Origin: a virus
Taxonomy: Duplodnaviria; Heunggongvirae; Uroviricota; Caudoviricetes
Direction: 5' to 3' (one strand)
DNA: 4,923 bases
Virus record (IMG/VR): IMGVR_UViG_2541047861_000004
The position numbers were made by a program, and so were the translations under genes. Shown piece after piece: positions 1 through 4,923 of the stretch. The notes under the pieces were generated by a model. That model was not told where the DNA came from. It did no database searches and was given only the letters and a program-made list of their open reading frames with translations. Numbering within the stretch: position 1 is the stretch's first letter; every line of letters starts with the position of its first letter.

Positions 1-2
1 GC

Positions 3-197
3 ATCAATGGTCTTTACAAAGCGGAGGTAATACACCGTAAGAGCTGGAAAAACCGTGCAGAAGTGGAACTGGCCACACTCACGTGGGTGGACTGGTATAA
101 CAATCGACGATTGCTGGAAAGGCTGGGCCATACTCCTCCGGCAGAAGCAGAAAAAGCTTATTATGCTTCCATCGGAAACGATGATCTGGCAGCCTGA
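3..197 (+). CDS. IS3-family transposase OrfB, C-terminal fragment (5' end outside window)
   Basis: Translation INGLYKAEVIHRKSWKNRAEVELATLTWVDWYNNRRLLERLGHTPPAEAEKAYYASIGNDDLAA, stop TGA at 195-197. The WxxWYNNRRxxxxLG motif is typical of the C-terminal end of the integrase-like catalytic domain of IS3-family transposases. Confidence 0.85.
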   Translation: MNGLYKAEVIHRKSWKNRAEVELATLTWVDWYNNRRLLERLGHTPPAEAEKAYYASIGNDDLAA

Positions 198-214
198 GTT
201 CACAGATAAAACAC

Positions 215-239
215 TCTCCAGGAAACCCGGGGCGGTTCA
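215..239 (+). repeat. Terminal inverted repeat (IRR) of the IS element
   Basis: tctccaggaaacccggggcggttca; reverse complement TGAACCGCCCCGGGTTTCCTGGAGA, starting TG as IS3-family ends do. The partner repeat lies outside the window, so this cannot be confirmed here. Confidence 0.6.
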
Positions 240-290
240 GACCTCTCCGCGCCGCCATGATTGTCTTTCTCCTGATGCAGGAGGCCAATA

Positions 291-485
291 ATGCTTAGCC
301 CATCTCAATCCCTTCAATACCTGAAAGAAAGCATAGAGCGGGCTTCAATGTGCACAGAGTGGATTCTATCTAGGTTTAGCGCATACAGAAGATTGCCGGT
401 AAAGGGCATGCCAAGCAAGTCGATGCTGCATATGCAAAAGAATGCGCGCTGGAAGGTATGGCGAGAACACAGGTTATGTGGCTGA
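291..485 (+). CDS. Hypothetical 64-aa ORF with strong Shine-Dalgarno; possibly a chimeric or spurious ORF at a mosaic joint
   Basis: ATG at 291 preceded by AGGAGG (280-285) in the spacer window. I do not recognise the product. Its 3' part overlaps the ybcO-like remnant in another frame, so both cannot be genuine. Confidence 0.3.
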   Translation: MLSPSQSLQYLKESIERASMCTEWILSRFSAYRRLPVKGMPSKSMLHMQKNARWKVWREHRLCG

Positions 486-508
486 AAGAGGGGGTTATTA
501 AGGCGTGA
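380..508 (+). pseudogene. ybcO: ybcO-like (DUF1364) 3' remnant with no start codon
   Basis: Frame-2 translation [42 protein letters not shown] ; the last ~27 residues match my recollection of the YbcO C-terminus. In-frame stop at 377-379 and no ATG/GTG start between it and the conserved part. Its stop (506-508) overlaps the rusA GTG start (505-507), as in the DLP12 ybcO-rusA junction. Confidence 0.45.
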
Positions 509-867
509 ATACCTACAGCATCACATTACCCTGGCCTCCGAGCAATAATCGCTATTACCGCCATAATCGCGGGCGCACGCACGTCAGCGCAGAGGGGCAG
601 GCATACCGCGATAACGTCGCCCGAATCATTAAAAACGCAATGCTGGATATCGGCCTGGCTATGCCTGTGAAAATCCGCATTGAGTGCCACATGCCGGATC
701 GCCGTCGCCGTGACCTGGATAATCTGCAAAAAGCCGCTTTTGACGCACTCACTAAAGCAGGTTTCTGGCTGGATGATGCTCAGGTCGTTGATTACCGCGT
801 TGTGAAGATGCCTGTTACCAAAGGTGGGAGGCTGGAACTGACCATCACCGAAATGGGGAATGAATGA
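505..867 (+). CDS. rusA: RusA Holliday junction resolvase (120 aa), GTG start
   Basis: Translation [120 protein letters not shown] matches RusA as I recall it. The residues I recall as catalytic (D70, D72, D91) and K76 are present at those positions. Start is GTG at 505. Confidence 0.93.
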
Positions 868-1004
868 TGTTTGAGTTTAATATGGCAGAACTTCTTCGCC
901 ACCGCTGGGGGCGTCTGCGCTTATATCGTTTCCTCGGTTCTGTTTTGACCGATTACCGAATACTGAAGAATTACGCCAAAACCCTGACAGGAACAGGAGT
1001 ATGA
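864..1004 (+). CDS. ylcG: YlcG-like small protein (46 aa), overlapping the rusA stop
   Basis: ATGATG at 864-869 overlaps the rusA stop (865-867). Translation [46 protein letters not shown], matching my recollection of DLP12 YlcG. It is below the length cut-off of the supplied ORF track. Confidence 0.7.
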
Positions 1005-1494: not shown

Positions 1495-1524
1495 TTATTA
1501 AAAATGGGGCGTGGAAACGCCCCC
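1495..1524 (-). terminator. Intrinsic terminator for the porin transcript (minus strand)
   Basis: Minus-strand RNA reads GGGGCG-UUUCCA-CGCCCC followed by AUUUUUAAUAACUUUU (6-bp GC stem at 1506-1511/1518-1523, U-tract toward lower coordinates). On the plus strand the same hairpin is followed by CAAAAUAAAGGG, so it is unidirectional. Confidence 0.65.
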
Positions 1525-1661: not shown

Positions 1662-2744
1662 TTAGAACTGATAAACCAGACCTACAGCGACGATGTCGTC
1701 GGTATCAATACCAGCTGTTTTGGTAAACTTACTATCGTCAATTAAGTTGATTTTGTAATCAACAAAAGTGGACATGTTTTTATTAAAGTAGTAAGTAGCA
1801 CCGACATCGACATACTTGACTAAGTCTCGGTCACCATGAACACCAAGGTCTTTACCTTTTGACTGAAGGTAAGCAACAGATGGACGCAGACCGAAGTCAA
1901 ACTGATATTGTGCTACTGCTTCAAAGTTTTGTGCTTTGTTTGCAATATGGTTATTACCAAAAACGGTCATATTCTGAGTTTCAGAATATGTGGTAGCCAG
2001 ATAGATATTGTTCGCATCATATTTCAGGCCTGCAGCCCATACTTCCGCATTTTTGCCGGAGGCATTGAATTTGCTCTTACCATAGGCGACCTGACCGTCA
2101 GTGCGATCTGATTTAGCATAGGTTGCACCCACGCCGAATCCTTCATACTCATAAGTAGTGGAGAAACCGAAACCATCACCATTGGCTTCAGTTACGTCAG
2201 TGCGGTCATTTTTACCCTGATACTGAGCAGCAAAGTTCAGGCCATCGACCAGACCAAAGAAGTCGTTGTTACGATAAGTTGCAACACCAGTAGTGCGACC
2301 AGTCATGAACACATCTGTTTGGGTCCAGGTATCACCACCGAATTCTGGCAGAACGTCAGTCCACGCACCGATGTCGTATGCTACACCGTAGTTACGGCCG
2401 TAATCGATTGAGCCGTAATCACCAAATTTCAGGCCTGCAAATGCAAGACGGGTTTTGTCTTTGGAAGAACCTTGAGATTCAGCACGGTTGCCTTTGAATT
2501 CATATTCCCACTGACCGAAACCAGTCAGTTGATCGTTGATTTGGGTTTCACCTTTGAAGCCAAGACGGGCATAAGTAGTATCACCATCATCTGCATCATT
2601 AGAGGAGAAGTAGTGCTTGGCATTAACTTTCCCGTATAGATCCAGCTTGTTACTGTCTTTATTATAAATTTCAGCTGCCTGAGCAGACATCGCCATCAGT
2701 ACTGATGCAGCTACAGCAGAAATTGCCACTGTTAATTTTTTCAT
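1662..2744 (-). CDS. nmpC: Outer membrane general porin of the NmpC/Lc/OmpC family, apparently intact (360-aa precursor)
   Basis: Translation from the internal Met gives signal peptide [23 protein letters not shown] then mature [17 protein letters not shown]...; motifs [25 protein letters not shown] and C-terminal GLVYQF align with OmpC as I recall it. The ATG at 2804 in the ORF track is rejected because it would place 20 residues ahead of the signal peptide. Confidence 0.92.
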
Positions 2745-2900
2745 TGTACGCCCTTTTTTTGAACTATTATTAAAAAATGATGTCACTGCGCGATAAATAT
2801 TCATCTAATCAATGTGATTATTTCAAGATGTAAGTTTTAGTTTCTCATTTAATTTGTGAAGTAGATCTCTATTTTTATCTGAACCTTTTCTATCTAATCC
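2745..2900 (-). promoter_or_regulatory. Porin gene promoter/5' control region with OmpR-box-like motif
   Basis: AT-rich. Minus-strand sequence corresponding to plus coordinates about 2808-2827, CTTACATCTTGAAATAATCA, resembles the OmpR site consensus as I recall it (TTTACATTTTGAAACATCTA), roughly 60-85 nt upstream of the ATG. No clean sigma-70 -35/-10 pair could be fixed by eye. Confidence 0.3.
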
Positions 2901-2955
2901 TATTCATGGCTCTTGTCTGAACAAAAATAAATCTATTAGCTAATTTATATTAATG

Positions 2956-2973
2956 GCACTTATTTATAAGTGC
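2956..2973. repeat. Perfect 8-bp inverted repeat with 2-bp spacer
   Basis: gcacttat-tt-ataagtgc, about 210 bp upstream of the porin start within the AT-rich intergenic region; candidate dimeric protein-binding site. Confidence 0.5.
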
Positions 2974-3112
2974 TCTATAATTCTTTAGCTTAATTTAAAC
3001 AAACTAAAAATAACATCGGAAATTATTAACTGGTTATTTGTTGAAGTTTTCTTATGCATTTGTGGTGGTGTTTTGAACACTCGGTGGCATTCTCACAAAT
3101 ATCATTTAGTAG

Positions 3113-3126
3113 TTTACGTACGTAAA
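3113..3126. repeat. Perfect 14-bp palindrome tttacgtacgtaaa
   Basis: Self-complementary over its full length, 45 bp upstream of the 3171 terminator hairpin and about 210 bp upstream of the holin start. Confidence 0.5.
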
Positions 3127-3170
3127 AAATTGGTTATGCTGTTAAGAGTGGTTACTTCGTCACACAGCTT

Positions 3171-3203
3171 AAACCCGCCGTCGAGCGGGTTTTTCCATTT
3201 TTT
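3171..3203 (+). terminator. Strong intrinsic terminator, plus strand, upstream of the lysis cassette
   Basis: aaacccgc-cgtcga-gcgggttt forms an 8-bp stem (3171-3178/3185-3192) followed by ttttccatttttt. On the minus strand the hairpin is followed by AAGCUG, so it is plus-strand specific. Confidence 0.7.
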
Positions 3204-3332
3204 GAGTCTCGATATTAGCTGATAACCCAATACCTGAGTTATTCACTGACTCCGAATCTGTTACGTTTCTGCCTTTATTGCGATACGTAGTATCCCCTTA
3301 ATTTACACCCGCTTTGTCTGCGAGGTGGGGTT

Positions 3333-3548
3333 ATGAAATCCATGGATAAGTTAACAACGGGTGTCGCCTATGGTACCTCAGCAGGTAGTGCCGGGTACTG
3401 GTTTTTACAGTTGCTCGATAAAGTCACGCCCTCACAGTGGGCGGCAATAGGTGTGCTGGGTAGCCTGGTATTTGGCCTGCTGACGTACCTGACAAACCTT
3501 TATTTCAAGATTAAAGAAGATAAGCGCAAGGCTGCGAGAGGTGAATAA
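3333..3548 (+). CDS. essD: Class II holin (phage 21 S-type pinholin, 71 aa) with dual-start motif
   Basis: Translation [71 protein letters not shown] closely matches S21 as I recall it. Met1-Lys-Ser-Met4 dual start, two transmembrane segments, charged C-terminus. RBS gaggtgggg at 3322-3330. Confidence 0.92.
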
Positions 3549-4045
3549 TGCCTCCATCATTACGAAAAGCCGTTGCTGCTGCTATTGGTGGCGGAGCAAT
3601 TGCTATAGCATCAGTGTTAATCACTGGCCCAAGTGGTAACGATGGTCTGGAAGGTGTCAGCTACATACCATACAAAGATATTGTTGGTGTATGGACTGTA
3701 TGTCACGGGCATACAGGAAAAGACATCATGCTCGGTAAAACGTATACCAAAGCAGAATGCAAAGCCCTCCTGAATAAAGACCTTGCCACGGTCGCCAGAC
3801 AAATTAACCCGTACATCAAAGTCGATATACCGGAAACAATGCGCGGCGCTCTTTACTCATTCGTTTACAACGTGGGTGCTGGCAATTTCAGAACATCGAC
3901 GCTTCTTCGCAAAATAAACCAGGGCGATATCAAAGGCGCATGTGATCAGCTACGTCGCTGGACATATGCTGGCGGTAAGCAATGGAAAGGTCTCATGACT
4001 CGTCGTGAGATTGAGCGTGAAATCTGTTTGTGGGGTCAGCAATGA
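3548..4045 (+). CDS. rrrD: SAR endolysin (phage 21 R-type lysozyme, 165 aa)
   Basis: N-terminal signal-anchor-release segment [20 protein letters not shown], then a lysozyme domain with E35, D44 and T50 at the positions I recall for the R21 catalytic triad. Start ATG overlaps the holin stop (taATG at 3546-3550). Confidence 0.93.
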
Positions 4046-4503
4046 ACAGAGTAACCGCGATTATCTCCGCTCTGGTTATCTGCATCATCGTCTGCCTGTC
4101 ATGGGCTGTTAATCATTACCGTGATAACGCCATTACCTACAAAGCCCAGCGCGACAAAAATGCCAGAGAACTGACGCTGGCGAACGCGGTAATTACTGAC
4201 ATACAGATGCGTCAGCGTGATGTTGCTGCGCTCGATGCAAAATACACGAAGGAGTTAGCTGATGCGAAAGCTGAAAATGATGCTCTGCGTGATGATGTTG
4301 CCGCTGGTCGTCGTCGGTTGCACATCAAAGCAGTCTGTCAGTCAGTGCGTGAAGCCACCACCGCCTCCGGCGTGGATAATGCAGCCTCCCCCCGACTGGC
4401 AGACACCGCTGAACGGGATTATTTCACCCTCAGAGAGAGGCTGATCACTATGCAAAAACAACTGGAAGGAACCCAGAAGTATATTAATGAGCAGTGCAGA
4501 TAG
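4042..4503 (+). CDS. rzpD: Rz i-spanin (153 aa)
   Basis: Translation [153 protein letters not shown] is near-identical to lambda Rz as I recall it. ATG at 4042 overlaps the endolysin stop (ATGA); the GTG at 4030 is rejected. Confidence 0.93.
4262..4444 (+). CDS. rzoD: Rz1 o-spanin lipoprotein (60 aa), embedded in the +1 frame of Rz
   Basis: Translation [60 protein letters not shown] has a lipobox (VVGC) and a proline-rich mature part, near-identical to lambda Rz1 as I recall it. AGGAG lies about 8 nt upstream. Confidence 0.88.
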
Positions 4504-4534
4504 AGCTGCCCATATCGATGGGCAACTCATGCAA

Positions 4535-4828
4535 TTATTGTGAGCAATACACACGCGCTTCCAGCGGAGTATAAATGCCTAAAGTAATAAAACCGAGCAA
4601 TCCATTTACGAATGTTTGCTGGGTTTCTGTTTTAACAACATTTTCTGCACCACCACAAATTTTTGCTGCATCGACAGTTTTCTTCTGCCCAATTCCCGAA
4701 ACGAAGAAATGATGGGTGATGGTTTCCTTTGGTGTTACTGCTGTAGGTTTGTTTCCAACAGTAAACGTCTGTTGAGCACATCCTGTAATAAGCATTGCCA
4801 GAGCGGCAGAAAACAACATTTTTTTCAT
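4535..4828 (-). CDS. borD: Bor lipoprotein (serum-resistance-associated, 97 aa)
   Basis: Translation from the internal Met: MKKMLFSAALAMLITGCAQQTFTVGNKPTAVTPKETITHHFFVSGIGQKKTVDAAKICGGAENVVKTETQQTFVNGLLGFITLGIYTPLEARVYCSQ, with lipobox LITGC, matching lambda Bor as I recall it. AGGA lies 8 nt upstream of this ATG; the longer ORF starting at 4876 is rejected. Confidence 0.9.
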   Translation of the reverse strand: MKKMLFSAALAMLITGCAQQTFTVGNKPTAVTPKETITHHFFVSGIGQKKTVDAAKICGGAENVVKTETQQTFVNGLLGFITLGIYTPLEARVYCSQ

Positions 4829-4923
4829 CTTATTATCCTGCATTGTTAAAAACGGCAGAATCCTATGTGACAACAATTAAACGATAGTTAAATGGATTGA
4901 TGAAAATTAAAACTACACAGGTG

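Follow-up and report, generated by a model that had tools for sequence, protein, structure and literature searches.

The 4,923-base stretch of DNA analyzed here, referred to as the window, is part of a lambdoid prophage in which an IS629 element interrupts the phage gene ninX at codon 95 of 113, leaving codons 95 to 113 in place. This is ordinary mobile-element erosion of a common E. coli prophage, and the sequence gives no sign of the downstream rusA gene being switched on. The junction at ninX codon 95 is likely an unexceptional insertion or deletion scar of IS629, one among many that are eroding this prophage. As a polymorphism it is unrecorded in the collections searched, and its kind is well known. 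The window carries the following features:

1 to 239, + strand: right end of IS629 (239 bp), with 0 mismatches to the CFT073/FY26 element and matches to rve_2/rve_3 and NF033516
240 to 298, + strand: 3' remnant of ninX (Phage_P22_NinX/DUF2591), codons 95 to 113, stop codon TAG at 296 to 298, assigned by identity to Nissle 1917
279 to 485, + strand: AGGAGG ribosome-binding site (279 to 284) and intact 64-amino-acid ninF-like open reading frame (ATG at 291, TGA at 483 to 485)
419 to 508, + strand: startless remnant of ybcO (DUF1364), last 30 codons, TGA at 506 to 508, assigned by homology to K-12 DLP12
505 to 867, + strand: rusA, Holliday junction resolvase gene, GTG start, 120 amino acids, intact (Pfam RusA, E = 6.9e-23)
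864 to 1004, + strand: ylcG, 46 amino acids, overlapping the rusA stop codon (NCBIfam NF033498, E = 8.5e-21; annotation in relatives)
1090 to 1473, + strand: quuD, Q-type late antiterminator (Pfam Phage_antitermQ, E = 6.7e-54; annotation in relatives)
1662 to 2744, - strand: OmpC/NmpC-type porin gene
3333 to 3548, + strand: essD, holin (Pfam, open reading frame list, annotation in relatives)
3548 to 4045, + strand: rrrD, lysozyme (Pfam, open reading frame list, annotation in relatives)
4042 to 4503, + strand: rzpD (open reading frame list, annotation in relatives)
4262 to 4444, + strand: rzoD, embedded in rzpD (Rz1 Pfam match recorded in a related locus)
4535 to 4828, - strand: iss/bor

The lysis cassette at 3333 to 4503 (essD, rrrD, and rzpD/rzoD) is intact. 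Searches for RNA genes over the window with Rfam (E ≤ 0.1) and for tRNAs returned none.

By its sequence, the inserted element is IS629, a member of the IS3 family, also known under the synonym IS1203v (PMC9330008). Window positions 1 to 239 aligned with 0 mismatches to the final 239 bp of the 1310-bp element found in CFT073, FY26, and other genomes, and the complete CFT073 element is 99.5% identical to Stx-phage copies annotated as "IS3 family IS629," which bears out the name given to it in the first-pass annotation. Frame 3 of this segment (positions 3 to 197, stop codon TGA at 195 to 197) encodes the last 64 residues of the transposase OrfB, which matched rve_2/rve_3, the C-terminal domains of the integrase core in Pfam, and covered the final 49 positions of the NCBIfam IS3-family transposase model NF033516. 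In relatives with identical full copies, the annotation includes a frameshifted OrfAB. The element ends in ...CCCGGGGCGGTTCA at position 239. This terminus is the right end of the 1310-bp element in finished genomes, the termini of which are inverted copies of TGAACCGCCCCGGG, and the boundary proposed earlier at 239 was thereby confirmed. The last two bases of the IS, CA at 238 and 239, are also found in the uninterrupted target, and the position of the joint is therefore uncertain by 2 bp.

The gene cut by the element is ninX. Positions 240 to 298 of the window match the 3' end of ninX in Nissle 1917 (6003 to 6061 of the uninterrupted Nissle locus) with 100% identity, and IS-free genomes carry the main part of this gene, which has 113 codons and belongs to the Phage_P22_NinX family, to the left of window position 240. 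The Pfam domain PF10765 (DUF2591) is recorded for intact ninX in relatives, and the complete 113-codon gene is absent from the window. IS629 thus destroys ninX, and it physically parts rusA, ylcG, and quuD from the early-operon genes cro, cII, O, P, ren, and nin. The ninX 3' end at 240 to 298 had previously been overlooked, and the view that the ybcO-like gene was the one hit by the IS fails on the ninX identity with Nissle 1917.

A startless ybcO-like remnant is indeed present upstream of rusA. From 419 onward it is homologous to K-12 ybcO, over the final 30 of 96 codons; it lacks an in-frame start codon, in-frame stop codons lie upstream, and its own stop codon (506 to 508) overlaps the rusA GTG. 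A Pfam search with the remnant gave no match, and a complete DUF1364 domain with a start codon is absent. However, the IS did not cause this truncation. The same 90-nt ybcO pseudogene is annotated in Nissle 1917 and CFT073, which have no IS at this site, and the remnant is base-for-base identical in the IS-free prophages of Nissle 1917 and UTI89 and in phage ev207, indicating that it is older than the IS.

An intact 64-codon open reading frame at 291 to 485, which had also been overlooked earlier, occupies most of the same interval. It has a strong ribosome-binding site, with AGGAGG 6 nt before the ATG, and stops 19 nt short of the rusA GTG. In a different frame it overlaps the ybcO remnant, and its last third corresponds to out-of-frame ybcO sequence. 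The predicted protein is 100% identical in phages ev207, 2G7b, PhiR63_2, ev017, and others, is annotated as "protein ninF" in NC_049949, and its gene is called in 2,407 blocks of the assembly collection. The NinF-length profile phrog_672 (58 positions) matched residues 1 to 22 only (E = 3.6e-4). Because IS-free prophages and phages carry both the same pseudogene and the conserved 64-amino-acid open reading frame, the interval between the IS and rusA reads as an old mosaic joint borne by phage genomes and unrelated to IS damage. The ybcO remnant and the ninF-like open reading frame are accordingly corrected to fixed features of the phage module rather than damage inflicted by the IS.

The prophage occurs in E. 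coli Nissle 1917, CFT073, UTI89, and several avian pathogenic strains. Window positions 238 to 900 are 100% identical in dozens of IS-free genomes, including Nissle 1917, ATCC 25922, UM146, and ABU 83972, and a later look-up showed that UTI89 also carries an IS-free version of the region. The 4,684 nt following the IS differ by 0 to 2 mismatches from eight related prophages, as follows for those named here and for K-12:

FY26, APEC E12053, MS20673, and NCTC11151: 0 mismatches over the 4,684-nt right flank
BEN5202: 1 mismatch over the 4,684-nt right flank
Nissle 1917 and CFT073: 2 mismatches over the 4,684-nt right flank
K-12 DLP12: right flank 91 to 98% identical, only from window position 419

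Positions 240 to 2982 also match phage ev207 with 100% identity across the region compared. The earlier guess that the host was not K-12 is borne out by these comparisons, with 0 mismatches to FY26, E12053, MS20673, and NCTC11151 against the partial, 91 to 98% match to DLP12. K-12 is not known to carry IS629. In E12053, MS20673, and NCTC11151, a truncated integrase of the prophage adjoins icd, and an identical IS629 is present in a record of phage 21 int from strain EC38.

None of the collections searched contained the exact junction, and thus no direct relative documents its history. A 101-nt query spanning the junction gave split matches only in 5,426 complete E. coli genomes, and a 31-nt exact junction pattern had 0 matches in each of genome_contigs and metagenome_contigs. 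The two junction-spanning open reading frames were looked up and are not on record, and the look-up of the 64-amino-acid open reading frame returned only IS-free or otherwise arranged contexts. A search of plasmids for a mobilized unit running from IS629 and rusA to iss yielded no plasmid with the junction; most of the long matches were chromosomal pieces filed as plasmids.

Other IS629 joints are common in this prophage, and the related genomes each contain about 13 to 17 IS629 right ends. The joints are listed below in coordinates of the uninterrupted Nissle locus:

51489: right flank at 5768 (ninX); simple insertion with target-site duplication GAC
BEN5202: right flank at 5859 (ninX); left flank unrelated
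FY26 and NCTC11151: right flank at 5962 (ninX codon 81); left flank at O nt 552, with 2,788 bp deleted
Window: right flank at 6003 (ninX codon 95); left flank outside the window
CFT073: right flank at 4541 (between ren and ninB); simple insertion with duplication GGT
MS20673: right flank at 4621 (in ninB); truncated int on the left
E12053: right flank at 3176 (in O); truncated int on the left

The ninX joints of the relatives lie 41, 144, and 235 bp further upstream than that of the window. The 2,788 bp lost from FY26 and NCTC11151 comprise O, P, ren, ninB, an adenine methyltransferase gene, ninE, and most of ninX. A further simple insertion of IS629, with the duplication GCGC, is located downstream of iss. 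We also considered a single ancestral insertion in O as the source of the joints in FY26 (left flank at 3173) and E12053 (right flank at 3176), and this was rejected, as 2 bp separate the joints and there is no overlap resembling a target duplication. The window begins inside the IS, and its left flank is therefore unseen. Taken alone, the window is equally compatible with a simple insertion, with a 3- to 4-bp duplication and no deletion, as in 51489 and CFT073.

If the closest relatives are a guide, upstream nin and replication genes have probably been lost on one side of the element, and we regard a deletion joint as somewhat likelier than a simple insertion. With those genes lost, the prophage would be unable to replicate. 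Deletions adjacent to IS629 that leave the IS intact are documented (PMC9330008), and the suggestion in the first-pass annotation of an IS-mediated deletion of the nin region holds for the nearest relatives, FY26 and NCTC11151, in which the arrangement is O(1-552)-IS629-'ninX with 2,788 bp lost; in the window itself, the corresponding left flank is out of view. It is possible, although less likely, that IS629 was instead inserted recently and simply into ninX, with a 3- to 4-bp target duplication and with the upstream nin and replication DNA retained to the left. The same element is flanked by duplications in 51489 (GAC), in CFT073 (GGT), and downstream of iss (GCGC), and the window says nothing about the left flank, all of which would suit a simple insertion. 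However, the two genomes with the nearest junctions, 41 bp away and with an identical flank, have lost 2,788 bp to the left of the IS, and most of the other IS629 copies in the prophage are deletion or rearrangement joints. An assembly artifact, in which a contig was mis-joined at a repeat, would fit the absence of the 31-nt junction from the 5,426 complete E. coli genomes and the two large contig collections, but it is scarcely credible as an explanation. The joint coincides exactly with the canonical IS629 terminus, the 2 bp common to the target are far too little for a repeat-driven mis-join, and genuine, different IS629 joints are found 41 to 235 bp away in finished genomes.

We additionally examined whether the insertion is likely to affect rusA. 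The RusA domain PF05866 extends over the whole protein and retains all of its catalytic residues, and all 120 residues are identical to the wild-type crystal-structure sequence of the E. coli K-12 enzyme (PDB 1Q8R). The inactive D70N variant (2H8C) differs from the RusA of the window only at residue 70. The distance of 265 nt from the end of the IS to the rusA GTG at 505 was confirmed, as was the location of both the transposase and rusA on the + strand, and the orientation of IS629 upstream of rusA permits transcription into the gene. A standard consensus scan of the + strand at 1 to 519 gave no sigma-70-like site. A relaxed scan, requiring at least 8 of 12 matches with spacers of 15 to 19, gave no -35/-10 pair on the + strand at 165 to 520, although weak or noncanonical promoters could escape a consensus scan. 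No extended -10 element was found at or after the junction, no promoter was found by the relaxed scan of a modeled IS629 circle junction (IRR-3 bp-IRL), and no sigma-70-like site with at least 9 of 12 matches was found in the whole IS629. The literature searched for an outward promoter of IS629 or read-through from it contained nothing usable.

Any effect on rusA would most plausibly be exerted by weak read-through of the transposase transcript. Such a transcript would cross 94 untranslated nt after the transposase stop codon, pass through the well-initiated 64-amino-acid open reading frame, and enter rusA. No + strand terminator is predicted in 1 to 505, and read-through from the weak transposase promoter is therefore possible. 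Outward -35 boxes or outward promoters are described for other IS3-family elements (PMC9330008 and PMC8860574), and some rise in rusA transcription is possible on this account as well. Since quuD lies downstream in the same direction, a transcript reading through from the IS into rusA would extend to quuD as well, and IS-driven expression of Q would be expected to turn on the lysis cassette. Strong constitutive transcription would presumably be harmful given quuD and the intact lysis cassette, and any read-through is thus expected to be weak. There is no sign that read-through into rusA was selected.

The precedent invoked in the first-pass annotation, the activation of quiescent rusA by upstream IS2 or IS10 in rus-1 and rus-2, was correctly described (PMC1636454, PMC10956419, and PMC3533792). 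In K-12, rusA is normally quiescent, and such insertions switch it on and suppress ruv defects (PMC1636454, PMC10956419, PMC2265524, and PMC3533792). Activation of rusA by IS629 would be an analogy with rus-1, to which the sequence lends no support. It is accordingly unlikely that the window contains a natural allele of the rus-1/rus-2 type, in which the co-oriented IS629 would supply constitutive transcription through the ninF-like open reading frame, either by read-through from the transposase promoter or from a weak outward promoter, and give active RusA in the lysogen. Besides the K-12 precedent, such an allele would be consistent with the co-orientation of IS629 at merely 265 nt from rusA, with the lack of a predicted + strand terminator in 1 to 505, and with the identity of RusA to the active K-12 enzyme. 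The 64-amino-acid open reading frame, with its AGGAGG and its end 19 nt before the GTG, would hold ribosomes on the transcript and thereby help transcription and translation to carry on, and right ends of IS3-family elements may bear outward -35 boxes, as illustrated by the IS3 outward promoter P3R (PMC9330008 and PMC8860574). However, no + strand -35/-10 pair was found at 165 to 520 (8/12), in the circle junction, or in the whole IS629, and no outward promoter of IS629 was found in the papers retrieved. The transcript would run on into ylcG and quuD, upstream of the holin-lysozyme-Rz cassette, which would presumably be harmful. A wild isolate is presumably ruv+, leaving no obvious selection for RusA, and the presence of IS629 at many other sites in the same prophage fits neutral erosion.

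A more elaborate form of this allele, in which read-through from IS629 would give constitutive RusA as a RuvABC-independent resolvase and the several ninX joints would represent successive deletions approaching rusA, is very improbable. The insertion-deletion-excision model (PMC8860574) would offer a parallel for successive deletions moving the IS closer to rusA. If this were true, wild pathogenic E. coli would gain a second, RuvABC-independent Holliday junction resolvase, and with rusA truly on, the laboratory rus suppressors would have their first counterpart in nature; the sequence holds no indication of this. The erosion by IS629 that we favor has little significance beyond strain typing. 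Among the genes of the prophage with the junction are iss, for serum survival, and a porin gene, and joints of this kind show how IS629 disables and fixes prophages in this strain group.

The arrangement resembles several known systems. With rus-1 (IS2) and rus-2 (IS10) in the DLP12 prophage of K-12, it shares an IS upstream of a quiescent rusA and an identical 120-amino-acid resolvase (PMC1636454 and PMC3533792). In contrast to those alleles, the element here is IS629, the prophage is a different one, and the target is ninX rather than the ybcO region of DLP12; no promoter-like motif was found, and this is a natural sequence that was not selected in a ruv mutant. O(1-552)-IS629-'ninX of FY26 and NCTC11151 has the same element, orientation, prophage, and target gene and a right flank that is identical over 4,684 nt. 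In these two genomes, the right junction lies at ninX codon 81, 41 bp upstream of that at codon 95 here, and the left flank is known.

In O157 enterohemorrhagic E. coli, the same element inactivates prophage genes and is associated with large adjacent deletions with the IS left intact (PMC9330008 and PMC9943667). An O157 prophage also has an IS629/IS1203 copy co-oriented upstream of ninE-ybcO-rusA, as here upstream of rusA. The flank of the window, however, matches Nissle 1917, CFT073, and avian pathogenic strains rather than O157, and the event does not depend on the excision enhancer IEE. In ev207 and related lambdoid phages, the nin order is ninE-ninX-ninF-rusA-ylcG-Q-porin. The identity of ev207 to the window over 240 to 2982 includes the ybcO remnant and the 64-amino-acid open reading frame; unlike the window, ev207 has a complete ninX and no IS.

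All of the IS629 copies found were co-oriented with rusA. An orientation bias was nevertheless rejected because the search pairs only pieces on the same strand. One related locus has an IS3-family transposase gene on the opposite strand at the place usually occupied by the O gene.

Right junctions of IS629 recur within ninX. In this 342-bp gene, four distinct right junctions were found in different strains, at positions 5768, 5859, 5962, and 6003 of the uninterrupted Nissle 1917 locus (Nissle coordinates). The ninX gene may be a hot spot for IS629, or it may be a frequent end-point of one-sided deletions. The junctions lie as follows.

Right junctions of IS629 in ninX
240, window
6240, FY26 locus (L001)
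4240, related locus L006
5240, related locus L007
4240, related locus L008

IS629 junctions were also present in replication gene O in strains FY26 and E12053.

IS629 junctions in gene O
4929/4930, FY26 locus (L001)
2739/2740, E12053 locus (L003)

In FY26 the left junction falls at Nissle 3173, and in E12053 the right junction falls at Nissle 3176, with 2 bp between them. A single ancestral insertion was considered for both and rejected; the two junctions do not overlap in the manner of a target duplication, and one such insertion is therefore insufficient to account for both. These two strains additionally carry a second, inverted IS629 directly after iss, flanked by the target duplication GCGC.

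Second IS629, inverted, 87 bp past window position 4923
11055-12364, FY26 locus (L001)
10341-11650, E12053 locus (L003)

At this post-iss site BEN5202 also carries a copy of IS629, which is frameshifted. The inverted copies flanking the segment from rusA to iss in FY26, E12053, and BEN5202 resemble a composite transposon. A search of plasmids found no plasmid-borne unit of rusA through iss bracketed by IS629. IS629/IS1203 copies were also detected upstream of ninE-ybcO-rusA, and co-oriented with these genes, in E. coli O157 FDAARGOS_293 (L011, 1430-2739) and in a cat isolate (L012), whose prophage adjoins a tRNA-Arg gene. The prophage of the window is therefore not alone in having an insertion sequence upstream of rusA.

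Between ninX and rusA lies a 64-aa open reading frame (ORF) with a perfect AGGAGG site.

279-485, plus strand, 64-aa ORF with its AGGAGG site

This ORF is absent from the automated RefSeq annotation of chromosomes, is labelled 'ninF' in phage ev207, and appears among the gene calls of 2,407 blocks in the assembly collection. Its likeness to a phage family of NinF length is confined to residues 1 to 22. Its last third, at the C-terminus, corresponds to ybcO in another reading frame, so the ORF is a chimera that arose at an old mosaic joint.

Farther downstream, an intact porin gene is located on the opposite strand, with Q on one side and the lysis genes on the other, and the region includes two strong terminator-like hairpins.

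1662-2744, minus strand, porin gene of OmpC/NmpC type, intact, encoding 360 aa (Porin_1, E = 1.9e-151)
1506-1523, minus strand, strong terminator-like hairpin, 3' of the porin gene
3171-3192, plus strand, strong terminator-like hairpin, about 140 nt 5' of the holin gene

The homologous nmpC of DLP12 in K-12 is interrupted by IS5. The hairpin at 3171-3192 may be the late-operon terminator acted on by Q. A Bacillus thuringiensis CT-43 plasmid record (HM037272.1) matched window positions 2496-4787 at 94%, a span with porin and lysis genes of E. coli, and within the plasmid record this stretch looks like foreign or contaminating DNA.
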